From the NCBI GenBank assembly GCA_016787575.1, contig JAEUUO010000036.1, positions 1,266-65,265 of the forward strand: a stretch of DNA of 64,000 bases, written 5' to 3'. Under the pieces are notes generated by a model. The model was not told the DNA's origin. It was given only the letters and a program-made list of their open reading frames with translations, and did not search any database. Every line of letters begins with the position of its first letter. Position 1 is the first letter of the stretch. This document shows, one piece after another, positions 1 to 24,631 of this stretch. The position numbers and the translations under genes are program-made. Origin of the DNA: Saprospiraceae bacterium. GTDB taxonomy: Bacteria > Bacteroidota > Bacteroidia > Chitinophagales > Saprospiraceae.

Positions 1-2
1 TT

Positions 3-281
3 GAGTGGCTCAATAAAATTGTAATAAAAATTGCATCCGAAGTTCACAAAAATAAAATTGAGGACTTTGAGAAACGTATTTTAGTTATTGAACAAGAACA
101 AAAAGTTGTTTTGAAAACACTCAAAGACATTGAAGCAAAACTTGACAAACTTGACGACAGGATTTACGATAATAATTTAAAAACCGCTAGTGCCTTAGGG
201 TTTGTTCAATCACTAAAGGCAACAGCTATTGATAATCCAAAATTTTTAAGTCAAGGTGACATCAACAAAGAACTGCCTTAG
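3..281 (+). CDS. hypothetical coiled-coil protein, 5' end outside the window (first cassette ORF)
   Basis: Frame 3 is open from the window edge to TAG at 279-281 (hand translation ...EQEQKVVLKTLKDIEAKLDKLDDRIY...). An attC-like site follows. Confidence 0.4.
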   Translation, partial: EWLNKIVIKIASEVHKNKIEDFEKRILVIEQEQKVVLKTLKDIEAKLDKLDDRIYDNNLKTASALGFVQSLKATAIDNPKFLSQGDINKELP

Positions 282-315
282 ACAAATTAGACAATGACAG
301 ACAACAAAAAACTAC

Positions 316-451
316 CGTTAACAGGCTATACACTCTACCCCGCCAGCAGCTTTATGGTTTACTTTCAATTTTTTTCGATAAGTTAAAATTATTTTTTTAC
401 TTTTGGATACCAGACTTTGGCGGTGCAGCGTGTATAGCCAATCCGTTGTAT
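316..451 (+). repeat. integron attC site (long AT-rich-centre family)
   Basis: CGTTAAC-aggctatacac ... gtgtatagcc-aatcc-GTTGTAT imperfect inverted repeat. The centre resembles the sites at 8929, 15068, 15824 and 16907. Confidence 0.65.
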
Positions 452-786
452 GAAATCCTGCCGCACGCAAACGCTCAGTACAGGAGCATCAATGGATAGA
501 TAATTTTAGAAGTCACAGCTTTTGGGTATGGTGAAGAGGACCTTAAGGACTTTGTTTAGCTGCAGTGATATCAAGCTCGCTTGAAAGATCAATGAAGCTA
601 AACAAAGTTCGGAAGTATTTAGGACAATGTCAAATAATTAGTCGATAATAGCCGTATATAAACGTTTAATTGTGACTGCTAAAAGGTATTGATGCGCCTG
701 CCGGAATTCAATACTACGCAAATCGAAGATTAACGTAATATTGAATAACCTTACTGAGGTTTCCGTAAAGTCAGCATCAGGACTTC

Positions 787-881
787 ACACAACTGCAGCT
801 TGAAACCATACCGGAAAGATATTTTCGGTAAAATTTAATATCTTTATTTCCGGAACGGTTTCAAGCTGCTTAACGTTATCG
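787..881 (+). repeat. integron attC site (short)
   Basis: ACACAAC-tgcagcttgaaaccataccggaaa ... tttccggaacggtttcaagctgc-ttaac-GTTATCG. The opening 7-mer matches 6/7 the reverse complement of GTTGTAT at 445-451. Confidence 0.7.
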
Positions 882-1049
882 CAGACTCATGGTGACTAAG
901 CATGACGGACTTGCGGAATGACTTCTCCCTCGTAGCAAAGCGTAGCATTATTGGCGGACATCACTCGTTTGCAGTTGCGCTGCTTCTTAAAAAATAAATT
1001 TAAGATTAGAAAGTTATTATTTCTTTTGAGTTTGGATGCCATGAGCCCA

Positions 1050-1144
1050 CGATAACATGGTGCACATCGCAATACCGCTATTCATGTTCTCATTTCTTTT
1101 TATATTTACGGAGCGGCACTGCGTCTGCACCAAGACCGTTGGTG
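1050..1144 (+). repeat. integron attC site (short)
   Basis: CGATAAC-atggtgcacatcgc...agcggcactgcgtctgcacc-GTTGGTG. CGATAAC is the exact reverse complement of GTTATCG at 875-881. Confidence 0.7.
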
Positions 1145-1172
1145 GCAAGCTTAACAGACACATCCCATAAAA

Positions 1173-2288
1173 ATGACAAAGAGAATAAAAACTAAAACAG
1201 TATTCATAATAGGTGCAGGATTTTCAGTTGAAGCCAAAGCACCTTCTCAAGAAAAATTAGTGCAAAAAATATTTGAAGTTCATAAAACTAATCCTGATGT
1301 TTTTAAAGAAAATAGAATTAATGAATTTGTAGAATTTTTAAGCACGACACTTTGCATTCCAAGCGAATTACAGGAAACAATCCCACTTGAAGATATATTT
1401 ACACCATTAGATAGTTGTATTTCAAACAATGTTACTTTTAGAAATTTAGGTGTACAAGAAGTTGTACAAAAAAGAAAATTAGTATTTGAACTAATCGGTT
1501 TAACACTTCAATTTTTATTAGGAGATTCTGATAAGAAATACATTGATGATTTTGCAGAGTATGTTATAAAAGCATCAAAAGTTAGACAAGGAACATACCG
1601 AACAATTGACCCAGTTTCAATTATTAGCACAAATTGGGATATTCTATTAGACAATTCTCTATATAACAAAATAATAAACCAAACTGATTTAGGGGTTGTT
1701 GATTATTGTTGTTATATAAGCTCATATGAAAAAGATGATGATTCCGTAAAGCCAGGGCTTGAAATATTGGGCAAAGGAGGTTTTAATGTAAAACTATTAA
1801 AACTTCATGGCTCTTTGAATTGGTTACAATGCCCTAAATGCCAAAGGATTTATGTAAAGTTTAATGAGAAAATTGCAATGAACCCTTATGCAAATATTGA
1901 TCATCCTACTTGTAGGCATTGTGATGCTAATTATGGCAAACAAAAATCACATAATCTTGTAGCCAATCTGATAATGCCAACATTCTTGAAAGACCTCTCT
2001 AATCCACAATTTAAAATCATTTGGCAGAACGCAGGAATTGAACTATCCGAAGCAAAAAAAATAGTTTTTATTGGTTATTCTTTACCTCAAGCCGACTTTG
2101 AAATGAGACAATTATTATCAAGAATGGTTGACGTGGATACAGAAATTGAAGTAGTAAATTTTAAGGACAATAATAATCCGAAAGTATATGAAGACTTAAT
2201 AAAAAATTACAGACAATTTTTTGGTAGAAGTGTCACAGATTTTAAAGACGGAACTAGAAAATATATAGAGCAACTACTAAAAGAATGA
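1173..2288 (+). CDS. SIR2-family (SIR2_2-like) NAD-binding protein with zinc-ribbon insert; single-gene cassette
   Basis: N-terminal FIIGAGFS, STNWD (TTNYD-like), LKLHGS catalytic-His motif, CPKC...CRHC zinc module, FIGYSLPQAD. Confidence 0.75.
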   Translation: MTKRIKTKTVFIIGAGFSVEAKAPSQEKLVQKIFEVHKTNPDVFKENRINEFVEFLSTTLCIPSELQETIPLEDIFTPLDSCISNNVTFRNLGVQEVVQKRKLVFELIGLTLQFLLGDSDKKYIDDFAEYVIKASKVRQGTYRTIDPVSIISTNWDILLDNSLYNKIINQTDLGVVDYCCYISSYEKDDDSVKPGLEILGKGGFNVKLLKLHGSLNWLQCPKCQRIYVKFNEKIAMNPYANIDHPTCRHCDANYGKQKSHNLVANLIMPTFLKDLSNPQFKIIWQNAGIELSEAKKIVFIGYSLPQADFEMRQLLSRMVDVDTEIEVVNFKDNNNPKVYEDLIKNYRQFFGRSVTDFKDGTRKYIEQLLKE

Positions 2289-2296
2289 AAGCCAGC

Positions 2297-2421
2297 CACC
2301 AACATTATATTGCCTCCATGCCACTTGATGATTTTTCTTTCACGCTTGACAGAAAATTTTTAACTTAGCTTTTGTATAACAGCCGGGGGAGTGGCACGGC
2401 GGCAATACGGATACGTTAGCG
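2297..2421 (+). repeat. integron attC site
   Basis: CACCAAC-attatattgcctccatgccact ... agtggcacggcggcaatacggatac-GTTAGCG. CACCAAC is the exact reverse complement of GTTGGTG at 1138-1144. Confidence 0.8.
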
Positions 2422-2441
2422 GTAATATCAAATCGACAATT

Positions 2442-3965
2442 ATGACAATAGAGCAATTTATAAATAATTTAGGATTTGAAATAAATCCATTTCAATATTC
2501 CAATGCGGATAAAGAAGTTGAGTATTTGGATTCGTATTTTATCAAACCTGATTATTTTGAAGATGTTTGGGGTAATCCGTATAATCCTGTATCTAACATT
2601 GTTTATGCCCCAAGAGGCGGTGGAAAAACTGCTCAAAGAATAATGATTGAAAAACGGGCTAAAGAATCAAAAGACATTCTCGCAATAACTTATACAAATC
2701 ATGACCTTTCAGAATTCAAAAAAATCGAGGACATCAACTTACATTATCATCTAACTTACTTAAATAGACTTCTATTAGTTGCATTTTTCAACAGAATAAA
2801 TGACACTTCATTTGACTTCAATTTCACTTTTAATTTTTCAGAGCGACAATATATTTACAAACTAGCACGCATTTATTTGTTTGATACTCCAGCATCTTTC
2901 CCAAATCAGGCAATTCAATCTCTGAAAACATTAGAGGATTATGCAGTTGATTTATGGAAAGGATTTAAGGAGCCAATAACAAATGTTATAAAACAGATTT
3001 CAAAAAGTAAAGGGCTCGAAGTTGACCTTTCCAAAATTGAAATTGATAAAAAACTAGAGTTAAGCCATAAAAACAACACTTTCAATATAATTCAACTACT
3101 AAAAAAATCAGGGTATAATTCTATTTATATACTTGTGGACAAAGTTGATGAACAAAACTTAACTGGAAATAATCCATCAGCAAGCTTCTCACTAATATCA
3201 GATCTTATCAAAGACCTTGAGTTATTAGAAACTCCCAATCTTAGCTTTAAATTTTTCTTATGGGATGCATTAAAGCCATTTGCAGTTGAAGCTGCTCGTC
3301 CCGACAGAGTATTCTCTTATGACTTAAGGTGGACTTGGATTCAAATCATTGAGATGTTATCAAAGAGGTCAGAAGCATACAGTAGAGGTAAAATCAAAAA
3401 TTTTGAATCTTTGTTTGAAAATAGAAAATCTCTTGGTAGAATTGTTCTGTTTTCAGAGTTGTCACCACGTGATTGTGTTAGAATTTGTAACAGAATACTC
3501 TCGGAACAATTCAAAGAAAATCCTAACTCTCTTAAATTTAGTGAATCGGTTGTAGATAGATCAATCGAACAATTTTGTAGGGAGAAAGCACAAGAACTAA
3601 TAGTGAATGCAACTAACCTTAAACACTTAACTAAAACTAACAGTGTTTCATTTACGATTGAAGAGCTTGTAGCAGCTAAAGTTGCGGCAGACTCTCCTGC
3701 AATTAGAAATATTATAAATCCATGGACGACCGCAGGTTATCTAAAAAAAATTGGACTTGTTGAAAGGAAAAATGCCAAATCTGTAAATGAATATGCCTAC
3801 CAGGACATTCGACTTGCATTTATGGCGACACCTACATTAAGCCTTGACCAATTTATAAAAGAAAAAGTTAGACGTTGTAAAACTGACACTTGTAAAACAT
3901 TTTACTACCGTGATTTTGATAGGAAACCTTATGATTGCCCTGAATGCAATACTGAAAATGAATAA
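2442..3965 (+). CDS. P-loop NTPase with C-terminal zinc ribbon, function unknown; single-gene cassette
   Basis: Walker A APRGGGKT (2613-2630), Walker B-like YILVDKVDE, C-terminal CKTDTC...CPEC. Start moved to ATG 2442 because the tracked GTG start at 2391 lies inside the attC. Confidence 0.6.
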   Translation: MTIEQFINNLGFEINPFQYSNADKEVEYLDSYFIKPDYFEDVWGNPYNPVSNIVYAPRGGGKTAQRIMIEKRAKESKDILAITYTNHDLSEFKKIEDINLHYHLTYLNRLLLVAFFNRINDTSFDFNFTFNFSERQYIYKLARIYLFDTPASFPNQAIQSLKTLEDYAVDLWKGFKEPITNVIKQISKSKGLEVDLSKIEIDKKLELSHKNNTFNIIQLLKKSGYNSIYILVDKVDEQNLTGNNPSASFSLISDLIKDLELLETPNLSFKFFLWDALKPFAVEAARPDRVFSYDLRWTWIQIIEMLSKRSEAYSRGKIKNFESLFENRKSLGRIVLFSELSPRDCVRICNRILSEQFKENPNSLKFSESVVDRSIEQFCREKAQELIVNATNLKHLTKTNSVSFTIEELVAAKVAADSPAIRNIINPWTTAGYLKKIGLVERKNAKSVNEYAYQDIRLAFMATPTLSLDQFIKEKVRRCKTDTCKTFYYRDFDRKPYDCPECNTENE

Positions 3966-3971
3966 TACTAC

Positions 3972-4103
3972 CGCTAACAGCCGTTTTGCAAAAGCGGGGG
4001 TTTCGTGCTTCTATGAAAGTGAAGTGTTAAATTCAAGTTTTGTGCATTTAATGAAGTTTAGTGCTAAAAATCCCCGCCTTCGCAAAGCGGCAAACCGTTA
4101 GGT
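3972..4103 (+). repeat. integron attC site (132-bp GC-rich-arm family)
   Basis: CGCTAAC-agccgttttgcaaaagcggggg ... aatccccgccttcgcaaagcggcaaacc-GTTAGGT. CGCTAAC is the exact reverse complement of GTTAGCG at 2415-2421. Confidence 0.85.
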
Positions 4104-4119
4104 GCAATTTTAAGATATT

Positions 4120-6003
4120 TTGAAAAGTAAAATACCAATATCAATAAGTCACTCAAATCTCCTTGAAGAATGGGACTATAGTTTAAACGAAAGACATCCT
4201 AATGACTTTACTAAAGGATCCAATTTTAAAGCGTTTTGGAAATGTAAAAAAAATCATTCATGGCAAGCTGCTATTTATTCAAGAACAAATGGACATGGCT
4301 GTCCATTTTGTAGATCCAGCACTTCACTGAATGAAATGACTATTTTTTCTGAATTAAGTTATGTTTTTCAAAATTCAATTCATAGGTATATAAAGGGAAA
4401 AAATGAAATTGACATTTTTTTACCGGATGTAGGTATCGGTGTTGAATATGATGGATTGAGGTGGCATATCGAGAATGACCAAAAAGACAGAAATAAAAAT
4501 CTATTCTTTCAAAGAAAAGGTATAAAAATTATCAGAATTAGACAGAAAGGGTTGCCCAAAATAACCGATGACGACATTATAGTTGAAAAGAAAATTGATA
4601 CTAAAGAAGTTATAAATGATTTACTAAAAATAATCTTGAAAACTGGTCAAGCGAAAGCTTATCAATCAAAAATTCTAGAATACATCAAACTTGATGGTGT
4701 AGCGAATGATTCAAAATATCAAGAATTATTAGCTTATCACCCATTTCCTTTCAAAGGAAGAAGTTTGGAAGATAAATTTCCAGCATTATCAGCAGAATGG
4801 GATACTAGTAAAAATAAAAATCTAACACCTAATCATTTCTATCCAAAATCAGCCACTAATGTCTGGTGGAAATGTTCAATGGGGCATGAATGGCTGGCAA
4901 GAATTTCACACCGAGTAAGTGGTAGTGGTTGCCCAATTTGTTCAGGTCGTGTTGCTGGATCAGAAAATAATCTCTCAGTTATTAATTTGGTATTAGCGAA
5001 GGAATGGCATTATCAAAAAAACAAACTGCTGCCTTATGATTACTTACCCAACTCAGGTAAAAAAGTCTGGTGGAAATGTACAAAAGGACATGAATGGCAG
5101 GCGACTATAGCTAGTCGTAACTCCAATGGCGCAGGCTGCCCTTTCTGTTCTGGCAATGATATAGAAGAATCTGATAGTATCTTTTACAATAAGGTAATAA
5201 TGTCAATTTGGAACTTTGAAAAAAACAATTCAATAAATCCAAAGAAACTGAGTAAAAATTCGAATAAAAAAGTTTGGTGGAAGTGTAAAAATAATCACGA
5301 GTGGGAATCAATAATTGCAAATATTTCTAAAGGAAGTGGTTGTCCATTCTGCAGTGGACATAAACCAACATATGAAACTTCATTTGGAAATAATCATCCT
5401 GATTTACTGAAGGAATGGGATTACTCAAAAAATGACAATAGTCCTTTCGATATAAGTTGCCAATCAAAGAAAAAAGTTTGGTGGAAATGTAATGATCAAC
5501 ACCAATGGCAAACTACAGTACAGAATAGAACTAAAGGCTCAAGATGTCCTTATTGTACCAATAAAATTGTACTAATAGCTAAATCTCTTTATACATTAGA
5601 GCCGGAATTAATGAAAGAATGGGATTTTAGTAAAAATCATAAAGTAGACCCAAAAACAATTAGCCTTGGTTCTGGACTTAAAGCCTGGTGGATTTGTAAA
5701 AATGGTCATTCATGGGAAGCATCAATTTATCATCGCACAAAAAACAAATCTGGATGTCCTTTTTGTTCTAACAAGAAAATTTCAATAGAAAATTCTATTG
5801 TGACTAAATATCCACAATTAATGAAGGAATGGGACTTTAAGTTAAATTCAGAGATTAAACCTGAGATGTATTCGCATGGTTCTACAAAAAAAGTTTGGTG
5901 GAAATGCGCTAAAGGACATAGTTGGCTTGCATCAATTGGGAAAAGAACGAGTGGCAGAAGTTGTCCGGAGTGTTATAAATTGAAAAGGAAAAACAGCACC
6001 TAA
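4120..6003 (+). CDS. seven-repeat treble-clef zinc-ribbon protein (DUF4379-like) with embedded Vsr/DUF559-like PD-(D/E)xK endonuclease domain
   Basis: Seven repeats of about 52 aa: EW(D/N)..KN....(V/A)WWKC..GH.W...I..R..G.GCP.C. EIDIFLPDVGIGVEYDGLRWH...IKIIRIR lies between repeats 1 and 2. TTG start. Confidence 0.7.
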   Translation: MKSKIPISISHSNLLEEWDYSLNERHPNDFTKGSNFKAFWKCKKNHSWQAAIYSRTNGHGCPFCRSSTSLNEMTIFSELSYVFQNSIHRYIKGKNEIDIFLPDVGIGVEYDGLRWHIENDQKDRNKNLFFQRKGIKIIRIRQKGLPKITDDDIIVEKKIDTKEVINDLLKIILKTGQAKAYQSKILEYIKLDGVANDSKYQELLAYHPFPFKGRSLEDKFPALSAEWDTSKNKNLTPNHFYPKSATNVWWKCSMGHEWLARISHRVSGSGCPICSGRVAGSENNLSVINLVLAKEWHYQKNKLLPYDYLPNSGKKVWWKCTKGHEWQATIASRNSNGAGCPFCSGNDIEESDSIFYNKVIMSIWNFEKNNSINPKKLSKNSNKKVWWKCKNNHEWESIIANISKGSGCPFCSGHKPTYETSFGNNHPDLLKEWDYSKNDNSPFDISCQSKKKVWWKCNDQHQWQTTVQNRTKGSRCPYCTNKIVLIAKSLYTLEPELMKEWDFSKNHKVDPKTISLGSGLKAWWICKNGHSWEASIYHRTKNKSGCPFCSNKKISIENSIVTKYPQLMKEWDFKLNSEIKPEMYSHGSTKKVWWKCAKGHSWLASIGKRTSGRSCPECYKLKRKNST

Positions 6004-6129
6004 CAACGGTTTTGTGTTATGGGGGCTGTCGTGCTTGGCAGAAACATTTGTGCAAGGCTCAACATTTGTACTTCGTATGAACAGTAGTGCTAAAAATCCC
6101 CCACAACGCAAAGCCGCAAACCGTTATGC
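5998..6129 (+). repeat. integron attC site (132-bp family)
   Basis: ACCTAAC...GTTATGC. ACCTAAC is the exact reverse complement of GTTAGGT at 4097-4103. The arms closely resemble the site at 3972-4103. The ORF stop TAA lies inside the opening core. Confidence 0.85.
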
Positions 6130-6166
6130 ACAAGTGTAGACAGACTTCAATTAAAATTAATAAGAC

Positions 6167-8308
6167 ATGAAAATCAGGCAAATCATAGATAAAATTGACG
6201 AGAACCAACTTTTTGTACCTGCATTCCAAAGAGAATATGTTTGGAAAAGGAATGATGCGAAAAATCTAATTTCTTCACTAATCAAAGATTATCCCACAGG
6301 AACAATGCTAACTTGGGAAACGAACAAACCACCAGAACTAAAAGGCAAATTCAAATATGATGAAAATAAAGGTGCGGTAAAAATAATTCTTGACGGACAA
6401 CAGCGCATTACGACACTATATATGCTAATGCAAGGTGACATTCCTCCATATTATAATGAAAATGAAATAGAAAACGATATTAGAAATTTATACGTAAATG
6501 TTGAATCGCTTGAACTGGAGTATTATAAAGTTAAAATGATGGAAAACAATCCACTTTGGGTGAATATTACAGATATTTTTAAAGGCAAAGTGAGAGAAAG
6601 AGATATAACAGATGAGTTAGAAAGAAGAAACAATGGGGAAAGATTACCAAGAGAAAGAGAAACACTTATTTCAAATAATATCAGATCAATTGAACGAATT
6701 GAAGACAGAGACTTTCTGGAACAGATAATTCCTGTAAAAGCAACAATTAAAGAAGCCATTGACATTTTTTATATTGTCAATGCAAGTGGGGTAAACTTGA
6801 CAGATGCAGAATTGGCCTTAGCTCAAATATCTGGCTATTGGCCAAATGCAAGAGATTTATTCAAGAAAAAATTACAGGAACTAGAAAAACAAGGCTGGGT
6901 TTTTAAACTGGATTTTATTGTGTATGCATTGTTGGCAGTTACACATAAAATGGGTTCCAAAATGGAAAAACTTCACACTGCAGATAACAAGGATAAGTTA
7001 ATGGCGGCATGGAAAAAACTTGACGATACTGTTCTCGACTACGTTTGCAATCTATTACAAAGTCAAGCATTTATTGACCATACTGATGAAATTAACTCAA
7101 TTTATGCACTTATTCCTTTAATTTCATACACTTTCAATAAACCTGACAGTAAACTGAATGAAGAAGAAATAAAGAAATCAATTAAGTGGTTTTACTATTC
7201 TCAAATACGATTTAGATATATAAGTCAGTTGCCGCAAAAATTAGATAAAGACATAGGTATAATTAATGACAATCTCAATCCCTTCGACACACTGCTTGCA
7301 CTAATCGACGAAGAACGGCCCTTAGAAATCAAGTCATCAGAATTTATTGGAAGAGACATACGCCACCCTTTATTTTCATTAATGAAATGGTATTTTAAAA
7401 GCAAAGGTGCTGTTTGTTTGGGGACCGGCCTGTCGCTTCGTAAAAATATGGGTAAAAAGTATAGTCTGGAAAGAGACCATATTTTCGCATACTCCGTTCT
7501 TAGGGATTCCGGTATTTACGACATGGAAAATCAATTCCATTACGCTATAGCACAAGAGATTACTAACCGTGCAATTCTAACATCAACTGAAAATCGGGAA
7601 AAGTCAGCTATGTTTGCTGATGTTTATTTATCTAATGTGAGAAAATTATTTCCAAATGCTTTGAAGTTACAAAGCATTCCAGAAGATGAAAATCTCTGGA
7701 AGGTAGAGAATTACGAAAGGTTCCTTGAAGCAAGAAGAGAAACGCTTGCTAAGGAATTGAATTATTTTCTACAAACTATTTCCATTGGGCAAGTAACAGT
7801 TTCAACATCTGTCGATTTGCTTGACATGATAGCATCTGGAGAGCATGGTTTTTTAGAATTCAAGTCAACTATGCGATGGAATTGGAAAGAGAACCGTCTT
7901 GACAAAAAGATGGAAGAGATCATTTTAAAAACTATTTCAGCATTTAGTAATGCCGAAGGTGGAAAACTGCTTATAGGAGTTACAGACGAAGGAGAAATAC
8001 TTGGACTCGAATCTGATTACAATACATTCAAGGAAGCTAATAAAGACCATTTTGAATTACACCTAAGAAATATAATCAACAATGCCTTTGGCAAAGAGTT
8101 CGGTGCAATTTATTTGAATGTCCGTTTTCCAATAGTGAATGATATAGAAATATGTGAAATAGATATCAAAGCGGCAAAGACACCTCTCTATTGTGAAATT
8201 GCTGACAAAAATGGAGCATCTCAAAAGAAATTTTATATCCGTAGTGGTAATTCATCGCAAGAGCTGGACATTGAAGAAACAGCGTCATACATTAAGAAAA
8301 GATTTTGA
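6167..8308 (+). CDS. GmrSD-like DUF262 (ParB-like) + His-Me/DUF1524-like nuclease fused to a C-terminal AlbA_2/Schlafen-like domain
   Basis: FQREYVW and DGQQR (6392-6406) are DUF262 motifs. ERDHIF...NRAILTSTENREKS is HNH-like. The C-terminal GEHGFLEFKS...FSNAEGGKLLIGVTDEGEILG resembles the AlbA_2/Schlafen fold. Confidence 0.7.
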   Translation: MKIRQIIDKIDENQLFVPAFQREYVWKRNDAKNLISSLIKDYPTGTMLTWETNKPPELKGKFKYDENKGAVKIILDGQQRITTLYMLMQGDIPPYYNENEIENDIRNLYVNVESLELEYYKVKMMENNPLWVNITDIFKGKVRERDITDELERRNNGERLPRERETLISNNIRSIERIEDRDFLEQIIPVKATIKEAIDIFYIVNASGVNLTDAELALAQISGYWPNARDLFKKKLQELEKQGWVFKLDFIVYALLAVTHKMGSKMEKLHTADNKDKLMAAWKKLDDTVLDYVCNLLQSQAFIDHTDEINSIYALIPLISYTFNKPDSKLNEEEIKKSIKWFYYSQIRFRYISQLPQKLDKDIGIINDNLNPFDTLLALIDEERPLEIKSSEFIGRDIRHPLFSLMKWYFKSKGAVCLGTGLSLRKNMGKKYSLERDHIFAYSVLRDSGIYDMENQFHYAIAQEITNRAILTSTENREKSAMFADVYLSNVRKLFPNALKLQSIPEDENLWKVENYERFLEARRETLAKELNYFLQTISIGQVTVSTSVDLLDMIASGEHGFLEFKSTMRWNWKENRLDKKMEEIILKTISAFSNAEGGKLLIGVTDEGEILGLESDYNTFKEANKDHFELHLRNIINNAFGKEFGAIYLNVRFPIVNDIEICEIDIKAAKTPLYCEIADKNGASQKKFYIRSGNSSQELDIEETASYIKKRF

Positions 8309-8345
8309 TGTTAAATCCGAAAGCGATTACAGCCAATAAACCTGT

Positions 8346-8477
8346 GCATAACAGCACCTACCCAAAAGACGGGGTTTTGTGCTCCAAAGACAGATTTGTG
8401 GTAAAAGGAATATTTGTACTATTAATCAACATTTGTGGTGAATCCCCCGCCCTTCGGGTAGCCGCAAAACGCTAGTG
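8346..8477 (+). repeat. integron attC site (132-bp family)
   Basis: GCATAAC...aatcccccgcccttcgggtagccgcaaaac-GCTAGTG. GCATAAC is the exact reverse complement of GTTATGC at 6123-6129. The closing core has C in place of the second T. Confidence 0.75.
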
Positions 8478-8487
8478 GCCATGCAAG

Positions 8488-8934
8488 ATGATAAAAGCTA
8501 TGCTTAATAGAATTGTGATCTCGATAATAATAATAATTATGTCATTAAGTTGCTCAAGGAATGATTATAGTGGAATTTATACACGACCGAGACATGTTAA
8601 ACTTTTAGGAGAAGGAATAACAATATTTAAAGACAGTTCGTATTCATACTTTTTTTCTGGCGGTGATTATCCAAGTATTATAGATAAAAAGGGGAATTAT
8701 AAAATGTTTAATAATAAACTAATCATATTTCATTCAGATAGCATAAGAGATTCAGAAATATCTCTTTACAGAGTGGATAGTTATTCCATAACTGATACTT
8801 ATTACATTCTAAAAATTGATCAAGAATGTATTTTGTATAACAATACAAAATGTTTTATGAAATTGAGGACGAACGGAAAGCTTGATGAATCGAAATATCA
8901 AAAAATCTGTAGAGCTGCAAAGCACGGTCACTAA
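8488..8934 (+). CDS. small hypothetical lipoprotein (cassette)
   Basis: Signal peptide with lipobox-like MSLSC. No recognisable domain. Confidence 0.5.
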   Translation: MIKAMLNRIVISIIIIIMSLSCSRNDYSGIYTRPRHVKLLGEGITIFKDSSYSYFFSGGDYPSIIDKKGNYKMFNNKLIIFHSDSIRDSEISLYRVDSYSITDTYYILKIDQECILYNNTKCFMKLRTNGKLDESKYQKICRAAKHGH

Positions 8935-9060
8935 CATGGTATACACTTAGTTCCACAAGAAAATTTAATTTTTCACTCTTGGCTTTCAATGTAAAATCTA
9001 TCTCCTTATCTTTGGCTTTCTCCCGTTAGCGGGACTGCGTGTATACCAAAACCGTTATGT
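8929..9060 (+). repeat. integron attC site (long AT-rich-centre family)
   Basis: CACTAAC-atggtatacac ... gggactgcgtgtatacc-aaaacc-GTTATGT. The opening core matches 6/7 the reverse complement of GCTAGTG at 8471-8477. Confidence 0.8.
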
Positions 9061-9079
9061 AGCATAAAAACATATAATA

Positions 9080-9727
9080 ATGAAAAGAAACACAATCAAT
9101 ATTCTGATTTCAGTATTATCTATATTTTCAGCTCAACGATTGCTTGCTCAAGAAAATAAATTCTTATTAAGTATTGAATACTCACCGAATTGTTCAAAAA
9201 TTACTGATGAAGTGGTTAATGAAAAATACAAATTAAGTCACAATGCATTAATAAGAATTGAATATAATACAAAAGGAAAGATTAAGCCATCATTAGGTTT
9301 AGGATATCTCAATACCGGTGAGTTAGAAAAATCTGAAATTGGAGGTCAGCAGGGAATTGAAGAAGTAAAATTCATTCATAATTATAATTATCTTTTCATT
9401 CCAATTGGGGTGATAATCAAATTTGGGAAGTTTTATTTCTTACCTGAAATTGGACTTGGAGTTAATATATCAAATAAAACAAGACAAATAACGAAATTTA
9501 CAAACGGTGAAACAGAAAAGGAAACGCGAGATGAAACCCTAATTTCTGGCGAATTTAATAAACTTTCAATCCCATTGTCATTAAGTGTCGCGAGGCAAAT
9601 TTCAATTGGTGGTAAATCATTTTCAACAGGATGCAAAGGATACTATGGAATTAACAAAGTTGTAAGAGATGTGCCTCGAAACAATCATTATTTTGGACTA
9701 GGGGTACTATTAGCAATGAATTTATAA
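9080..9727 (+). CDS. outer-membrane beta-barrel (porin-family-like) protein (cassette)
   Basis: Signal peptide ...FSAQRLLAQE, alternating beta-strand pattern, aromatic C-terminus. Confidence 0.5.
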   Translation: MKRNTINILISVLSIFSAQRLLAQENKFLLSIEYSPNCSKITDEVVNEKYKLSHNALIRIEYNTKGKIKPSLGLGYLNTGELEKSEIGGQQGIEEVKFIHNYNYLFIPIGVIIKFGKFYFLPEIGLGVNISNKTRQITKFTNGETEKETRDETLISGEFNKLSIPLSLSVARQISIGGKSFSTGCKGYYGINKVVRDVPRNNHYFGLGVLLAMNL

Positions 9728-9740
9728 ATGGAAATACGCT

Positions 9741-9808
9741 ACATAACAATACATATGACGATCAGCCTTCCCATTCGGTCAGGCAGCTGCATATGCAAAA
9801 CGTTATGC
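9741..9808 (+). repeat. integron attC site (68 bp, classical short form)
   Basis: ACATAAC-aatacatatgacgatcagcc...ggtcaggcagctgcatatgcaaaac-GTTATGC. ACATAAC is the exact reverse complement of GTTATGT at 9054-9060. Confidence 0.8.
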
Positions 9809-9893
9809 GCCACTTAGATAAACCAATCAAATGTTTAAACAAAATAAACTTAGAATCAAATCGTTTTGATTTTCTAATCAATTTAATAAAGAT

Positions 9894-10259
9894 ATGAAAA
9901 CAAATTACCAGCCTTACTTGATTGTAATAATATTACTCGGATTCGGATTTCTTTTCTTAAGACCTATACCAATTCCAAAAGAACAAGATTGTTTAATAAT
10001 TAAAGGAATTGTCAGTGGGATATACGAAGGTGGCACTCATGATGTTATCTTCAAATTAAAAGATCAAGTAAAACAATTTTATGTAAACCGAGGAACAGAG
10101 TACGGTCTTGATATAAAAAAAATGCAAAATGAATTGATAGATAAAGAGATCGTAATAAAATATCCAAATTATTGGTTATTGACGCTTCCAGGCAATGTTA
10201 TGATTCATGCTTCCAAAATCGAATTCAATGAAAGAACTTTATACACACAATTAGATTAA
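9894..10259 (+). CDS. hypothetical membrane-anchored protein (cassette)
   Basis: N-terminal TM helix. No recognisable domain. Confidence 0.45.
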   Translation: MKTNYQPYLIVIILLGFGFLFLRPIPIPKEQDCLIIKGIVSGIYEGGTHDVIFKLKDQVKQFYVNRGTEYGLDIKKMQNELIDKEIVIKYPNYWLLTLPGNVMIHASKIEFNERTLYTQLD

Positions 10260-10277
10260 TAAAGCGGCGCATAACAG

Positions 10278-11992
10278 GATGTGAAAAAACTACTTTCAAT
10301 TTAATTCAACAATTTCTTGTATATTTTAATTTGATATTGTATTTTTATGTTATATGAATCATATAACAGGTATGCCAAGATTACAAATGCAGATGAGTTC
10401 ATTGGAAGATTCCATTGACCAGGAAAACCCGGTAAGATTTATCGATGCATTTGTAGATCAATTAGATTTATTAAAGATTGGATTTGAAGTAAAAACGTTA
10501 AAAACAGAAGGCCGCCCTAGTTTTGAAGCTTCTACCTTACTTAAAATATATTTATATGGTTACTTAAATGGTTTGCGGAGTAGCCGCAGACTAGAAAGTG
10601 AATGTATTAGAAATATTGAACTACAATGGTTAACCTTGGGATTACAGCCAAATTATCATACCATCTCTGATTTTAGAAAAGACAATCCAAAAGCTTTAAA
10701 AAATGTTTTCAAATTATTTGTTTCATTTCTTAAAGACATTGATTTGATTGGTAGTCAAATTATTGCCATTGATGGGACTAAGTCAAGAGCTCACAACAGC
10801 AAAAAGAATAATTACAATCAAAAGAAAATTGATAGGCACTTAGCTTATATTGAGGAAAAGAGTAATGAATATCTTATTCAATTGGAGGATAATGATATAA
10901 AGGATGATTTAACAAAAGTCTTGAATATCCAGGAAAAAATAAATAGACTTAAACAGAATAAAATTAAGTATGAAGTTCTGCAAGAAAAACTAATAGATTC
11001 TGACGAACCACAAATAAGCACCACGGATCCAGACTCCCGTGCCCTGCTTGTCCATGGACAGGTTGTTGAAGTTTGTTACAATATCCAAACTGCAGTTGAT
11101 GATAAACATAAACTAGTTGTGGCAACTCATACGATTAATCGGAATGACCGTAATGCACTCACAGATATTGCATTAGAAGTAAAAGCAAATTTGAATGCGG
11201 ATGGTTTTGTGGCATTACTGGATAAAGGATATCACAATGGTAGAGAAATTCAGCAATGTACGGATGCCAATATTGATACAATTGCAGCCCCATCACTTAT
11301 TGTCAATAGCAATACATATGGAACAACACCGGAATATGTGGTAACTAATTTTGTTTATAATTATAAACTTGATACGTACACTTGCCCGCAAGGCAAAACA
11401 TTGAACACAACTGGAACATGGCACACTAAAACAAAGGATAACCATTCAGGTTATAAATTTAAAAAATACAGAACTCCTGAGTGCAAAACATGTCCAGCAA
11501 AACACCTTTGCACCAGAAGAGCGAGCGGAGGACGAGAAATAGAAAGAAGTGAATTTGCAACCGCAGTAGAAGCAAACAATACGCGCTACAAAGAAAATGC
11601 CGCATTGTATCGTAAAAGACAAGAAATTAACGAACATATCTTCGGAACAATAAAAAGGAAATGGGGATATTACTACACCAATCTAAAAGGACTAGATAAA
11701 GTCAACGGGGAGCACAGTTTAATTATGCTGGCTTATAATATTAAACGATGCTTTGCATTACCTGGCGTTCCAGAACTTACTGAGAAATTAAAAAATTGGG
11801 CTTCTCCTTACAAGAAAGACCCTGCTTTTCTTCAAAATTGGATTGATTTAAGACCTTTAGAACTCCTGGTGTTTAATCGGACTATTACGCTCTTTAAAAA
11901 ATGCATCGCATGTAACTCATAAAACTGGTTTATATGAGAACATACAATGAATTTTTAAAATTTTGAATATAAAAAATGGTATTTTCACACTC
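10278..11992 (+). mobile_element. IS1182-family (IS5-like DDE) insertion sequence, about 1.7 kb
   Basis: Imperfect terminal inverted repeats GATGTGAAAAAAC... and ...GTATTTTCACACTC, with similarity extending about 45 bp inward. Carries a single transposase ORF. Boundaries are approximate. Confidence 0.65.
10354..11922 (+). CDS. IS1182-family DDE transposase
   Basis: N-terminal FIDAFVDQLDL...RPSF...LLKIYLYGYLNGLRSSRRLE...TISDFRK (DUF772-type). DDE region AIDGTK...LLDKGY. C-terminal cysteine cluster and ...EHIFGTIKR. Confidence 0.85.
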   Translation: MNHITGMPRLQMQMSSLEDSIDQENPVRFIDAFVDQLDLLKIGFEVKTLKTEGRPSFEASTLLKIYLYGYLNGLRSSRRLESECIRNIELQWLTLGLQPNYHTISDFRKDNPKALKNVFKLFVSFLKDIDLIGSQIIAIDGTKSRAHNSKKNNYNQKKIDRHLAYIEEKSNEYLIQLEDNDIKDDLTKVLNIQEKINRLKQNKIKYEVLQEKLIDSDEPQISTTDPDSRALLVHGQVVEVCYNIQTAVDDKHKLVVATHTINRNDRNALTDIALEVKANLNADGFVALLDKGYHNGREIQQCTDANIDTIAAPSLIVNSNTYGTTPEYVVTNFVYNYKLDTYTCPQGKTLNTTGTWHTKTKDNHSGYKFKKYRTPECKTCPAKHLCTRRASGGREIERSEFATAVEANNTRYKENAALYRKRQEINEHIFGTIKRKWGYYYTNLKGLDKVNGEHSLIMLAYNIKRCFALPGVPELTEKLKNWASPYKKDPAFLQNWIDLRPLELLVFNRTITLFKKCIACNS

Positions 11993-12058
11993 TGACGTTT
12001 ATGGTAAGGCGAGAGTTAGTATTCTTTTGAATTTATTCAAACAAAATTTATATCAATA

Positions 12059-15000
12059 ATGAAAGAAGTTAGACAAGACGACATAGAGATTTATTTAGCA
12101 AATGCAGAAAAGCCAATAGCATATTCAAATTATTCTTATCCCATTAATAAGCTAGATGATAGAGTATATGAAGTTTTGACATATTCAATTTTCAAAAAAA
12201 GAATTGCCACAAATGATGCAGGAATTAGTGAGAAGCATTCTAATGTGATTCTGATGCAAGGTATTGGTGAAAAAGGGATGGATTGTATACTTACCTATGA
12301 GAATAGAATAAATGGAGTTATTCAATGTAAAAAGTATTCTAAAAATTTGACTGACACTCAAATATTAACGGAACTTATAAAGTTTGCAATTCACTTTTCT
12401 ATTGATAGTACAAGATTTACTCAAAGCAACAAATTAAAATATTTCTTTGCAACTTCAACAGGTTATACTGCAAAAGCAATTCAACTTATTGAGCTGATTA
12501 AAGACAAATCATTCCAGAGTAAATATGATTATATAAAAATAGTTACATCTATTATTGGAAAATATAAAGAGTTCAAGAATCTGAAATTAATAAGGTTGCA
12601 AGCTGAAATACCAAATATTTTGTCTAATTTTGAATATGAACTAATAAGACCTGATGATTATAACCTTTGGATAAATACCTATCCTGAAATTATTAATACA
12701 TTTTTTGAAGTAAAAAAAGTTACGGATAATTCTCTGATAGAAGAGAAAGGGAATGAGATTTTGAATAAAATTGAAACTCTGTTTTCAGTAAAAGAATCAG
12801 AAGTTATTGATTCTTTTATCAAGAAATACAAAGCTGTTGCTGTTGAGAAGCTAAATCTTGTAAATTTTATTGGTTTTGATTTACACAGATATAGGCAAAA
12901 ACCAGCAGAAATAACATTGACAGAATTATTTGTTATGCCTTCTTTTATTCAAAGAATAAGCGATAAAAATAAAAAAGTTCTAAGTATTGTTGATAAAGAC
13001 TTAAAAGTTGCAAATGTTTTTAAGTCGGATAAAAATATAATCCTTCTTGGAGATCCAGGTGCTGGTAAATCATTACTTGTTAAATTTATTATAGTACAAA
13101 TTTTAAATGGAGCTGAAGATAAAATTGGTCTAAAGCAATTTGGCCATGCCATTCCATTTAGAATAGAATTAAGGAAATACAATGAGGTTCGAGAAAGTAA
13201 AAGTGTTATTGAGTATTTGTCCGATCTACTTGATAAAGAGTATCAAACTGCTATTGGTATTGATATGTTAAGTAAATTAATTCATAATTATGAGTCAATT
13301 GTCTTTTTTGATGGATTAGATGAGATATTTAATGCAACCCATAAAAATAAAATGAAAGAATGCATTGAATTGTTTAGTATTAACTTTCCGAAGTCAAAAA
13401 GTGTAGTAACCTCTAGATTTATTGGTTATCATGATATTAATTTTAATCCTAAGAAGTTTGATGAATTTGCCATTCAGCGTTTTAATCAAAGTCAAATAGA
13501 AGAATTAATAGCAAAATTTTATGCGACTCAAATTTCAAATATTGATAAAAGGCGCATATCAATAGTAAATTGCATTTCGCAAATCGAAAAAGAAGTTGAC
13601 AACGATTTAAAGAGCAACCCACTTATAATGACTCTGATTCTAATTCTTACGAGTAACAATATTATTATTCCGGATTCTAAGCTAGAAATTTATGAAGCAT
13701 GTACCAAGACATTAGTAGATAGTATTGATACTAGAGAGAAAGAATTGAAGATAGAAATGCCAGTAAAAAATAAGCGACTCACATTTGCTCACTTAGCATA
13801 TTGGCAATATGAATCACTTAGTAAGAATTCAAAAATTTCCTATGATAGAGCTGTTAAAGCAATATCAGATTTTCTAATTGATAAAAAAGAAGTTTTAGAT
13901 ATTACAGAAGCAGAGGATAAGGCCAAAAAATTCCTGGATTATGCTGAAAAGCGATCAATATACTTTGAAGATAACTTCACTCATAAAACATTTTTAGAAT
14001 ATTATACCGCAGACTACCTGTATATAAATTTTTTTACGAAAGCAAATGATCAAGCAAGAAAGAAGGTAATTTCTATTATCACTAATTATCTTCCAAAGGC
14101 ATTTTGGTATATCGTTTTTGAGTTGCTATTAACTAGAATAGATAAAGAACAGGCAGACTCTGAATTGTTGGATGAAATATTTTCAAAGCAAATTGAATCC
14201 AATTCTCTTAATGTTTTTTATTTTTTAATTAGTAATTTAACTAAATTTATAAATATTAGTAATGAAATAAAATCGAAAATAATTAAGAAAACTATATTGC
14301 TATGTATCAAAGGAGAAAAGGTATCAGAACTTAGACATGGTTATCATTTTGAAGAAAATAGTTTATTAGCGAAGATAAATTACTTACAAAAGGATGATAG
14401 TTTATTCGATATATTCCAAGCAGCTATCTATGAATTTGAAGATGATGGCCTAGATGATAGAGATTTAATTGAATTTTACATATTTTATTATGAGGTAGTC
14501 TCCTTAAATTTTAAAATGAAGTATGAAAATTCTTTAAAAATTAAAAACAAAAGGAAGCTTAAGGAGCTTAGTTATAAAGACCTTCACTTGTTCTGTCAAT
14601 CTATCGTTCCAAGAAAAAACAAAGATGAAGTGATTTCCATTAATGTGCTTTTGGATCAGATAGAACATTTTGGCACTAAAAGTTTATTTAAAAATTTAAA
14701 ATTTCGTCATCGAGATAATGTATTTAGAATTGATACATTTGATATTTATCTTATGAGTGTAATTGAAAATTTAGATTATGAGGCATTTCAGGAAGATTAT
14801 TTTAAACTTTTAAAAGCTGGTTTAAGACATGACCAGATATTGGATCATGTAAAATCTTCAAAATTATTTTTCTTTCATAGAGGAGAAGGTTTTGAGAAAC
14901 TTCTTAATTTCTTTTTAAAATCTAACAATAAGGAACTAGATGACATTATACTTGGGCTTGTGAGAAATATTGGTGAAATGAGAATTACTTACGAAAAATT

Positions 15001-15061
15001 TAGAGAGACCAATTCTAATTCAAAGCTTAGAATCATAGACAAAATATTTAAGAGGAAATAG
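12059..15061 (+). CDS. NACHT-family STAND NTPase with N-terminal Mrr-like PD-(D/E)xK nuclease domain and large helical C-terminal region (Avs/bNACHT-like)
   Basis: YEVLTYSIF...GEKGMDCIL...GVIQCKKY (D...QxK nuclease motif). Walker A LLGDPGAGKS (13049-13072). Walker B IVFFDGLDE. About 550 aa of C-terminal alpha-helical sequence. Confidence 0.75.
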   Translation: MKEVRQDDIEIYLANAEKPIAYSNYSYPINKLDDRVYEVLTYSIFKKRIATNDAGISEKHSNVILMQGIGEKGMDCILTYENRINGVIQCKKYSKNLTDTQILTELIKFAIHFSIDSTRFTQSNKLKYFFATSTGYTAKAIQLIELIKDKSFQSKYDYIKIVTSIIGKYKEFKNLKLIRLQAEIPNILSNFEYELIRPDDYNLWINTYPEIINTFFEVKKVTDNSLIEEKGNEILNKIETLFSVKESEVIDSFIKKYKAVAVEKLNLVNFIGFDLHRYRQKPAEITLTELFVMPSFIQRISDKNKKVLSIVDKDLKVANVFKSDKNIILLGDPGAGKSLLVKFIIVQILNGAEDKIGLKQFGHAIPFRIELRKYNEVRESKSVIEYLSDLLDKEYQTAIGIDMLSKLIHNYESIVFFDGLDEIFNATHKNKMKECIELFSINFPKSKSVVTSRFIGYHDINFNPKKFDEFAIQRFNQSQIEELIAKFYATQISNIDKRRISIVNCISQIEKEVDNDLKSNPLIMTLILILTSNNIIIPDSKLEIYEACTKTLVDSIDTREKELKIEMPVKNKRLTFAHLAYWQYESLSKNSKISYDRAVKAISDFLIDKKEVLDITEAEDKAKKFLDYAEKRSIYFEDNFTHKTFLEYYTADYLYINFFTKANDQARKKVISIITNYLPKAFWYIVFELLLTRIDKEQADSELLDEIFSKQIESNSLNVFYFLISNLTKFINISNEIKSKIIKKTILLCIKGEKVSELRHGYHFEENSLLAKINYLQKDDSLFDIFQAAIYEFEDDGLDDRDLIEFYIFYYEVVSLNFKMKYENSLKIKNKRKLKELSYKDLHLFCQSIVPRKNKDEVISINVLLDQIEHFGTKSLFKNLKFRHRDNVFRIDTFDIYLMSVIENLDYEAFQEDYFKLLKAGLRHDQILDHVKSSKLFFFHRGEGFEKLLNFFLKSNNKELDDIILGLVRNIGEMRITYEKFRETNSNSKLRIIDKIFKRK

Positions 15062-15067
15062 CCCTGA

Positions 15068-15198
15068 TATCAACTGAGTACTTACGATCATGGCGCAAAT
15101 AAGCTTTAATTTTCACTTTTAGCTTTTAATGAAATAATATTTCTTACTTTTGGATTTGGTGCTAGTGGCGGCCCGTCGCAATTGCCTGGCCGTTATAG
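15068..15198 (+). repeat. integron attC site (long AT-rich-centre family); opening core uncertain
   Basis: ...TATCAAC-tgag-TACTTAC-gatcatggcgc ... ggcggcccgtcgcaattgcctggcc-GTTATAG. The centre is typical (aattttcacttttagc...atttcttacttttgg). Confidence 0.6.
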
Positions 15199-15223
15199 GT
15201 CATAATAGCAAATTAGAATTAAA

Positions 15224-15829
15224 TTGAGAAATGTAATTTTATTTATACTAATTATTTTGAATTGTAACTGTAGGATAGAATCTAATTATGAAGAAGGACT
15301 TAAAAATTGTTTAAATAATTTTGCTTGAGCAAAGAAACTCGGTTCAAATGCAAGCATGTCGATTGGGCCAGATTGTTTGATTGGTGCTAGAGTTCCTGAT
15401 TTTAAGGTAGAACTTATTGATGGAAGTAAATATTCAAACGAAAACCTAAAGGGTAAAGTTAGTGTTATTAATTTTTGGTTTATTGACTGTCCGCCTTGTG
15501 TTGCAGAAATTAATGGCTTAAATAGTTTGGTTGAATTATTTGGAAAAGATAAAATAAATTATGTTGCATTTGGAAGAGATCCAAAAAGTGATATAGAATC
15601 ATTTTTAAAAAATCATGTTTGGAATTATAACCACATTTCTGGTGAAAATAATATTATTGATACTATTTTTAAACTGTATTGGGGTTATCCAGCAACTTTT
15701 ATTTTGAATAAACAAACAGAAATAATTTATACTGCTTCTGGTGGCAAATCAGATTCAACTGCAAGCGAAGAATTACTAAATAAACTTATTCCGATCCTAA
15801 AGAATGCAGAGGAAAATGACGACCTATAA
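15224..15829 (+). pseudogene. TlpA/thioredoxin-like lipoprotein reading frame interrupted by an in-frame TGA (15326-15328)
   Basis: TTG at 15224 opens LRNVILFILIILNCNC... (signal plus lipobox) in the same frame as the 15356 ORF. A single TGA separates them. Confidence 0.45.
15356..15829 (+). CDS. thioredoxin-fold thiol:disulfide oxidoreductase (TlpA/ResA-like), as tracked from the internal ATG
   Basis: VPDFKVELIDG...LKGKVSVINFWFIDCPPCVAE contains a CxxC motif. Confidence 0.7.
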   Translation: MSIGPDCLIGARVPDFKVELIDGSKYSNENLKGKVSVINFWFIDCPPCVAEINGLNSLVELFGKDKINYVAFGRDPKSDIESFLKNHVWNYNHISGENNIIDTIFKLYWGYPATFILNKQTEIIYTASGGKSDSTASEELLNKLIPILKNAEENDDL

Positions 15830-15953
15830 CTTCGTACTTGCGATAATGCCGTCAAGCACCAGATATTTTCACTTTTGGCATGAATTGAAAAACTATTTTC
15901 TATATTTGGTATAATTGGAATGGTTGCACATCGCAAGTATTTCATCGTTGACT
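15824..15953 (+). repeat. integron attC site
   Basis: CTATAAC-ttcgtacttgcgat...atcgcaagtatttcatc-GTTGACT. CTATAAC is the exact reverse complement of GTTATAG at 15192-15198. The ORF stop lies inside the core. Confidence 0.8.
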
Positions 15954-15978
15954 GCATTTGTAAAACATAATTTAGACA

Positions 15979-16896: not shown

Positions 16897-16906
16897 AAAT
16901 AACTGC

Positions 16907-17036
16907 AGTCAACAATGTACTTACAGACATGCCATCTAAAAATTTAGTTTTCACTTTTGACTTAGATTGAAAATACAATTTCTTACTTTTGCCTTCTGGA
17001 CAAGTAGCGGCGCGGCGCAAGTACATAGCGTTATGA
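16907..17036 (+). repeat. integron attC site
   Basis: AGTCAAC-aatgtacttac...gcgcaagtacatagc-GTTATGA. AGTCAAC is the exact reverse complement of GTTGACT at 15947-15953. Confidence 0.8.
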
Positions 17037-17716: not shown

Positions 17717-17864
17717 GTAATATTGGCATTAAGACACGTTTGGCGTCATGTGGATTGACATGGTTACATTCAAGTTCAGTTTTCCAAGTTGGCTTTTGTG
17801 CTGGTTTGTCAGCTTTGTGCTCCGAATATCCGCCGAATGCCAAACGCCAAAACGTTCGTTATCG
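17689..17864 (+). repeat. integron attC site (two possible registers for the opening core: 17689 or 17727)
   Basis: TGATAAAC-ggacttttgg...ttggcatt (or GCATTAAG-acacgtttggcg) pairs with aatgccaaacgccaaaacgttc-GTTATCG at 17836-17864. Confidence 0.55.
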
Positions 17865-17879
17865 GTAATAATTTGTAAA

Positions 17880-18401: not shown

Positions 18402-18506
18402 GTGCACATAGCATCGCATTCACACTATAGCGCAAATATCATGAAGACATTTATCTTGGCGGGCTTGGAAAACATATTTTACATTTAGCTTAAAACCAAG
18501 TGAGGT

Positions 18507-24617: not shown

Positions 24618-24631
24618 CAGCAAATTCAACT

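Follow-up and report, generated by a model that had tools for sequence, protein, structure and literature searches.

What is a protein made of seven zinc modules and one nuclease domain for, when its gene moves about as the sole occupant of an integron cassette with defence genes for neighbours? The question is raised by a 627-residue open reading frame (ORF) at 4120..6003 (+) in a 64,000-nucleotide stretch of DNA from a Saprospiraceae bacterium (assembly GCA_016787575.1, contig JAEUUO010000036.1; the whole stretch is called the window here). Judged by its sequence and predicted structure, the product is very probably an active DNA endonuclease that is targeted by its zinc modules. That it acts as a stand-alone, zinc-module-guided enzyme, probably cutting foreign DNA as a one-gene defence cassette, we hold at about an even chance, and that defence is the role for which it has been selected, which we infer, at somewhat under even.

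The zinc modules and the nuclease domain

In the ORF listing, translation starts at a TTG immediately 3′ of an in-frame TAA; the equivalent codon of orthologues is GTG. Pfam finds seven separate stretches of DUF4379 (PF14311, ‘Probable Treble clef zinc finger domain’; E 4.3e-137) in the 627-amino-acid (aa) product, whose score of 446.8 bits, against a gathering cut-off of 24.5, places it in that family. The gene is laid out as follows:

4120..6003, + strand: zinc-module array and nuclease ORF, 627 aa, with its TAA stop codon inside the R″ box of the recombination site described below
4159..4323, + strand: DUF4379 module 1, aa 14-68, with ligands C42, H46, C61 and C64
4324..4599, + strand: EDxHD/Vsr-like nuclease core, aa 69-160, delimited by conservation, the 3r3p profile match, AlphaFold2 (AF2) and Foldseek
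4600..4788, + strand: helical extension of the nuclease domain and linker, aa 161-223
4789..4953, + strand: DUF4379 module 2, aa 224-278
4993..5157, + strand: DUF4379 module 3, aa 292-346
5200..5364, + strand: DUF4379 module 4, aa 361-415
5404..5568, + strand: DUF4379 module 5, aa 429-483
5611..5775, + strand: DUF4379 module 6, aa 498-552
5821..5985, + strand: DUF4379 module 7, aa 568-622

The seven modules are 39-55% identical to one another and share the motif EW..KN...P...S..(V/A)WWKC..GH.W...I..R...G.GCP.C. Their predicted zinc ligands, C-x3-H ... C-x2-C, are invariant in all seven and 94-100% conserved across 1,151 family units, which were drawn from the non-orthologous top homologues with close orthologues excluded. 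A full-length model shows the modules well formed, with a predicted local distance difference test score (pLDDT) of mostly 80-90 and a fold of short helix, β-hairpin, helix and CPxC knuckle; its predicted template-modelling score (pTM) is low, 0.34, as expected of a beads-on-a-string layout. Tandem Repeats Finder (TRF) detected no tandem repeat at the DNA level in the ORF, so the module duplications must be old, and a recent duplication was rejected. NCBIfam and minor Pfam matches (glutaredoxin, Lar, RZ finger, PIR1-like_C, Permu_RdRp_palm and others) define no independent stretches and were set aside as artefacts of Cys/Trp-rich repeats.

Between modules 1 and 2 lies a nuclease domain of about 150 aa (aa 69 to about 206), in which the block EIDIFLPD...VEYDGLRWH...IKIIRIR occupies aa 96-141 (nucleotides 4405-4543). 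A homologous region is present in 113 of the 120 top homologues, and S69, E72, E96, D98, E109, D111, G112, H116, D123, K126 and R139 are invariant or nearly so among them: E72 and D98 are found in all 113, D111 and H116 in 111 each, and D123 in 99, the remaining 14 having Glu. A profile of 50 such regions has a single significant sequence match in the PDB, the catalytic domain of I-Bth0305I (3r3p; E 2.2e-5). This is also the first-ranked Foldseek match (probability 1.00, target template-modelling (TM) score 0.65) of an AlphaFold2 model of aa 60-222 with a mean pLDDT of 89.2; the DUF559 structure 3hrl ranks third (probability 0.99), and Vsr itself (1cw0) trails at rank 29 with a probability of 0.57. 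The best matches in a viral structure library are phage ‘endonuclease-like’, DUF559 and homing endonuclease proteins, along with giant-virus proteins. Beyond the core, helices at 161-174, 179-189 and 197-206 appear in both models, and this region is alignable in the closer homologues.

The EDxHD motif of I-Bth0305I consists of E170, D196, N208, H213 and D222, corresponding to E25, D51, H64, H69 and D97 of Vsr (PMC3239194). In the HMMER alignment to 3r3p, D98, D111, H116 and D123 fall on D196, N208, H213 and D222. Since that alignment starts downstream of E72, this residue was paired with E170 through its position in a conserved T/S-x-x-E motif; all five EDxHD positions are present, which places the protein among those that carry the motif. 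Formal family models reach less far. The match to REase_MTES_1575 (PF18741) is below threshold (16.3 bits against a cut-off of 38.2, E 0.01), Pfam reports no match of the ORF to DUF559 (PF04480), and homologues score at most 35.9 and 18.5 bits with the MTES_1575 and DUF559 models, respectively. By its sequence the domain is placed in the DUF559/MTES_1575 superfamily, as a formal member of neither family.

An earlier note on this DNA, made from the letters alone, had described seven repeated units with the motif given above as treble-clef zinc units, and had put a Vsr/DUF559-like nuclease core between the first two. The seven DUF4379 stretches, well past anything that chance would produce, agree with it in number and kind, the motif was correct, the block lies where it was placed (aa 96-141), and the likeness of the core is upheld by the 3r3p profile match and by 3r3p, 3hrl and 1cw0 in Foldseek. 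The note had named poor conservation of the core residues among homologues as grounds for refutation; these residues turned out to be near-invariant in the 113 homologues.

The gene is under purifying selection: the ratio of nonsynonymous to synonymous substitution rates (dN/dS) against orthologues is 0.10-0.16 at dS of 0.6-1.4, alike in nuclease and modules. Each module has, moreover, an identity of its own. Compared position by position with orthologues, modules share 63-92% identity, against 33-56% when modules at different positions are compared. Across the 1,151 units, entropy is near zero at W, N, P, S, WW, C, G-H, W, R and C-P-x-C, and the highly variable columns 38, 40, 41, 43, 44 and 46 fall in the loop before the hairpin and in the helix that follows. 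These loop and helix positions differ between the modules of one protein yet are conserved among orthologues. Such conservation module by module is what one would predict if every module contacted a partner of its own on the target; it is compatible with sequence reading, without proving it.

The integron cassette

Imperfect palindromes bearing R″ (xxTAAC) and R′ (GTTxxxx) boxes lie on both sides of the gene and delimit a cassette and its attC recombination sites (a slash marks the cassette boundary):

4098..6123, + strand: integron gene cassette of 2,026 base pairs (bp) with one ORF, from the T of G/TTAGGT to the G of the next G/TTATGC
3973..4103, + strand: attC of the preceding cassette, R″ GCTAAC ... 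R′ GTTAGGT; its final six bases belong to the nuclease cassette
5997..6129, + strand: attC of the nuclease cassette, R″ CACCTAAC at 5997 ... R′ GTTATGC at 6123

Because attC stems carry bulges, the boxes were located by direct sequence comparison. The preceding attC is an imperfect palindrome whose bottom strand folds with paired ends (z -2.5). The ends of the nuclease cassette's own attC also pair, but its free-energy z of -0.07 is not significant, so that it was identified from its boxes and from boundaries drawn by comparison. These boundaries are sharp. An orthologue with 96% identity lies among different neighbours on a 2-Mb metagenomic contig, where the stretch similar to the window opens precisely at GTTAG on the upstream side and closes at the R′ box on the downstream side, the flanks being unrelated. 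Contigs from activated-sludge and bioreactor metagenomes break or diverge at 4097-4100 and 6129, with loose ends and a joint at 6129/6135. Finally, a cassette able to circularise should begin with the reverse complement of its own R″ box, and this one does: it opens with TTAGGTG, and its box reads CACCTAA.

In sludge metagenomes the attC stretches stand at 10-20 times the depth of their flanks. This holds for attC of a type about 130 nucleotides (nt) long (3973-4103, 5997-6129 and 8346-8478), and the high depth suggests that many cassettes in sludge communities share it.

The cassette array extends from before position 1 to about 19.6 kb, all on the + strand, and runs off the left end of the window; no integron integrase was found among the ORFs scanned up to 28 kb. 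Rfam detects neither an intron nor any other RNA at positions 1-20000. The setting is that of an attC-bounded cassette in a bacterial array, not that of an intron- or intein-encoded, or free-standing phage, homing endonuclease gene.

The defence reading and its rivals

Searches with the full-length protein return about 8,000 matches, of which the best 120 are 626-1089 aa long with about 7-13 modules, distributed before and after the nuclease in numbers from (0,10) to (10,3). Among 1.84 billion clusters at 50% identity, the nuclease profile matches 30,883 representatives at E<=1e-3, 7,518 at <=1e-10 and 910 at <=1e-30; by this sequence measure the family is very large, with at least 7,500 such clusters. 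Members occur in Bacillota, Actinomycetota, Bacteroidota and others, in 158 of 72,556 plasmids and in 140 of 50,697 phage records, and are labelled merely ‘zinc-ribbon domain-containing protein’ by NCBI and UniRef. The nearest genomes are metagenome-assembled genomes of Bacteroidota, and a scan with the single protein gave 16 loci.

Seven of the 120 top homologues (P0035, P0044, P0056, P0073, P0075, P0085 and P0110) have 9-11 DUF4379 modules and no detectable nuclease. By analogy with CapR, which stands in this relation to T5orf172 endonucleases, such arrays may be derivatives that only bind DNA.

No partner gene is conserved near homologues: no family recurs in more than 3 of 102 neighbouring ORFs from 12 loci. 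Likewise, no methyltransferase is found in the cassette, adjacent to members on the plasmids examined, or conserved near homologues. Orthologues lie in unrelated contexts, with no common target gene or locus. Defence genes are present at several of these places. SMODS+SLATT lies directly upstream of an orthologue with 79% identity, LmuB near a Neobacillus homologue, nSTAND3 next to a Priestia homologue, and AbiJ with PIN-Phd near another. A Ureibacillus sp. homologue (locus L024, 1862-9599) is situated 240 nt 3′ of the end of a PglZ-BrxD-BrxHI block in the same orientation, and could serve a BREX-type island as an accessory nuclease.

The array of the window itself holds a SIR2-like gene, a GmrSD_N + Schlafen/AlbA_2 fusion, a NACHT gene, the transposase of an insertion sequence, an AhpC/TSA gene and several genes without a family. 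Defence cassettes are known to be stored in the arrays of chromosomal integrons (bioRxiv 10.1101/2024.07.02.601686). It is this background, together with the single-gene cassette, the defence-rich array and homologue loci, the want of an immunity partner and the long-term purifying selection, that argues for defence.

We picture such a nuclease as follows. Its zinc modules would line up next to one another along double-stranded DNA and choose the target; the related CapR-type modules of phage homing endonucleases have been shown by experiment to bind specific DNA sequences. The nuclease would then hydrolyse the backbone with Mg2+ through D98, D111, H116 and D123. A monomer would nick; a dimer, as in I-Bth0305I, could make a double-strand break. 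The host would be spared either because a long composite site is absent from its own genome or because the target feature is unique to foreign DNA, and the protein could cleave incoming phage or plasmid DNA with no methylase or immunity gene alongside.

Several observations weigh against this reading. Many homologue loci have no recognisable defence neighbour, and the number that do, about 6 of 18, is modest and a raw count without a proper background. No PADLOC-DB 2.0 family matches the 627-aa protein at E<=0.01. Only 21 nt of cassette leader precede the start codon, so expression depends on transcription from upstream, and in one run labelled RNA-Seq the gene has the same low depth as its neighbours, indistinguishable from DNA carry-over. 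To our knowledge, no bacterial member of the family has been studied experimentally. The characterised relatives of the nuclease and of the zinc module are all homing endonucleases or derivatives of them (PMC3239194, PMC8096241, PMC12350094). Further, binding of DNA by DUF4379 itself is proposed by analogy, and the solved DUF4379 structures are of trypanosome mitoribosome proteins only.

Two more proposals of the earlier note can be judged at this point. Its integron cassette is well founded, given the boundaries of the 96% identical orthologue, the contig breaks and the complementarity of start and R″ box. Its single-protein restriction or defence factor has a circumstantial case: defence neighbours at some loci speak for it, and other loci without any, the missing PADLOC model and the homing-type relatives, which the note had left out of account, speak against it.

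The main rival, unlikely though by no means negligible, is that the protein is instead a selfish endonuclease of homing type that stands free, or has recently descended from such an enzyme, with a rare long site and spread by break repair, which an integron captured without benefit to the host. Its pedigree points that way: the closest characterised nuclease is the homing endonuclease I-Bth0305I, and nucleases of phage introns join three to five CapR/DUF4379/DUF723-like modules to an EDxHD/Vsr domain (PMC12350094). Phage homologues occupy classic free-standing sites. One of them, an ‘endonuclease’ gene of a T4-like phage, lies between gene 32 and frd and encodes six CapR domains, which the DUF4379 model also recognises (E 6.7e-15); another, in a Sporosarcina phage, lies between helicase and primase and combines two DUF4379 modules with a DUF2726-like nuclease. 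A 210-aa Listeria phage protein consists of exactly one module and the same nuclease (E 2.5e-28). The high variability in module number and order resembles that reported for the DNA-binding regions of homing endonucleases (PMC10448857). Decay, too, is what a homing cycle predicts: on the Mesobacillus foraminis plasmid NZ_CP033045.1 (locus L038, 8721-10982) a member is split into four short ORFs, each labelled ‘zinc-ribbon domain-containing protein’, and this copy, judged by its sequence, is decaying.

The window gene behaves otherwise in several respects. Its mobility comes from attC recombination at precise cassette boundaries and not from homing, it lies in no intron or intein (Rfam has no match in 1-20000), and its orthologues share no target gene. 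Purifying selection is evident out to a dS of about 1.4, modules number 7-13 in bacterial members and 1-6 in phage members, and defence genes are often neighbours.

An improbable alternative is a modification-dependent, Type IV-like nuclease, in which many weakly binding modules would jointly sense densely modified phage DNA. It would explain the missing methylase, since no methyltransferase accompanies the cassette or is conserved nearby; the adjacent cassette encodes a GmrSD-like enzyme of Type IV type, and the W, N, S and R that recur in each module could form a common ligand pocket. The distinct, conserved identities of the modules, however, fit separate partners better than a ligand shared by all. 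The protein resembles no known reader of modified bases, and CapR relatives bind a specific unmodified sequence.

We think it highly improbable that RNA is the protein's substrate, or that the protein serves as a scaffold that binds nucleic acid without catalysis, comparable to the DUF4379 proteins of the trypanosome mitoribosome or to the Vsr-like RAP domains of organellar RNA-binding proteins. Every solved DUF4379 structure is a mitoribosome component or assembly factor, the Foldseek list for the nuclease domain includes Toxoplasma mitoribosome proteins, and the nuclease is absent from the seven arrays mentioned above. Nevertheless, the full set of Mg2+-binding and catalytic residues is near-invariant here, which sets the domain apart from degenerate domains of RAP type; the relatives found in phages are genes for DNA endonucleases, and the setting is one of mobile DNA and defence genes.

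A very-short-patch repair endonuclease that nicks T:G mismatches is scarcely credible: the fold belongs to the Vsr superfamily and JGI names two orthologues (P0003 and P0005) ‘very-short-patch-repair endonuclease’, but true Vsr identity is effectively refuted, as the ORF matches neither Pfam Vsr nor NCBIfam vsr at E up to 0.1, has no Cys between aa 65 and 251 and hence no Vsr zinc site in its nuclease domain, and is accompanied by no dcm in the cassette, and Vsr itself has no zinc-module array. The JGI name is wrong.

Neighbouring cassettes and known systems

Upstream of the nuclease cassette, at 1173-3965, a SIR2-like gene (PADLOC E 6e-10, no Pfam match) precedes a gene for a 524-aa protein without a family match. 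An R″ box follows the SIR2-like gene and no R′ box was seen ahead of the next ORF; the two may form one two-gene cassette or a fused pair. Downstream, the GmrSD_N + Schlafen/AlbA_2 fusion at 6167-8308 (PADLOC HEC-05, E 5e-46) is a separate cassette. One metagenome contig joins 6135 directly to 8335, so this GmrSD-like cassette is missing in part of the population. Several cassettes (8488-10259 and 15979-19558) have no family match, and an insertion sequence with a DDE transposase (DUF772 + DDE_Tnp_1_6) lies inside the array at 10354-11922. The NACHT protein encoded at 12059-15061 has 1000 aa, unusually large for a cassette, and is likely a STAND-type immune sensor; a peroxiredoxin-like AhpC/TSA gene occupies 15356-15829. 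Right after the array, 20063-26179 encodes an AurF-like N-oxygenase, KAS III, an AMP-binding enzyme, an NAD-dependent epimerase and a double short-chain dehydrogenase, a biosynthetic-looking cluster.

The databases already contain thousands of cases of this domain combination, and it is in print for giant viruses and phage introns. Its integron-cassette setting appears to be undescribed, with no report in the literature searched on DUF4379, EDxHD or treble clef with Vsr and anti-phage. A lone cassette gene among defence genes offers a clean one-gene test of whether nucleases of homing-endonuclease type have been recruited for bacterial immunity.

A bolder view, and a rather improbable one, is that DUF4379 arrays constitute a natural modular system for reading DNA that is used in immunity, in which each module would read a few bp with the face of its short helix and the preceding loop. 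The one-to-one identity of modules, the extreme variation in their number and order, the conserved scaffold with its variable helix and the frequent defence neighbours prompt this idea. Such ‘natural zinc-finger nucleases’ would recognise sites of 20-40 bp, change specificity by gain, loss and reordering of modules, and attack conserved phage or plasmid targets with no methylase. Should the modules read DNA serially, they could provide a new protein-based DNA-targeting scaffold; if not, the result is a routine improvement of annotation. A per-module DNA code for DUF4379 is at this stage hypothetical.

Among known systems, Type II restriction-modification is set apart by its cognate methyltransferase, which the cassette does not encode. 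With Vsr, DUF559 (PF04480) and REase_MTES_1575 (PF18741) the window protein shares the superfamily fold and the motif D...ExDG..H...D..(K/R)...R, whereas it falls below all family cut-offs and has neither the Vsr zinc site nor a helicase or dcm partner.

The zinc modules have their nearest studied counterparts in CapR and in the T5orf172 endonucleases of phage ICP1, whose modules are homologous, repeated and shuffled in the same manner, and whose CapR models cross-match with DUF4379. CapR, from a Vibrio PLE satellite, is a domesticated DNA-binding domain of a homing endonuclease that binds a specific promoter, and mutants in its four Cys lose binding (PMC8096241); CapR/DUF723 repeats have been described as shuffled DNA-binding parts of T5orf172 homing endonucleases (PMC10448857). 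The ligands differ, being CxxC...CxC in CapR and C-x3-H...C-x2-C in the window protein, and so does the partner nuclease, which is a GIY-YIG-like T5orf172 domain, or none in the repressor CapR, as opposed to the EDxHD/Vsr-like domain of the window.

Similar in composition is the 210-aa protein AIA64412.1 of a Listeria phage (Pecentumvirus), introduced above, with its single DUF4379 module and a nuclease of the same subfamily. Over aa 5-126 of the query the identity is 40.6%, and the six C-terminal modules are absent; the protein is phage-encoded and uncharacterised. Both building blocks recur in four group II introns of phages and in group I introns related to them, which encode three to five CapR/DUF4379/DUF723-related domains of about 60 aa followed by an EDxHD/Vsr-like domain, and which have been termed a large unrecognised outgroup of EDxHD homing endonucleases with thousands of unannotated relatives (PMC12350094). 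There the nuclease is C-terminal and the gene resides in a phage intron; here one module precedes the nuclease and six follow it, no intron is present, and mobility comes from attC.

I-Bth0305I (3r3p; PMC3239194) provides the top sequence and fold match in the PDB, with the Vsr-like fold and the five catalytic positions, where the ‘x’ is D in the window protein and N208 in I-Bth0305I. Encoded by an intron in phage recA, it has two N-terminal NUMOD/helix-turn-helix (HTH) motifs and a C-terminal nuclease, in contrast to the integron cassette, seven zinc modules and nuclease after module 1 described here; the NUMOD/HTH DNA-binding region of EDxHD homing endonucleases is not found in the ORF, in which Pfam detects DUF4379 modules only. 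Engineered zinc-finger nucleases and transcription activator-like effector nucleases (TALENs) offer a functional analogy only, of unrelated fold and origin, in that small DNA-reading modules are tethered to a nuclease.

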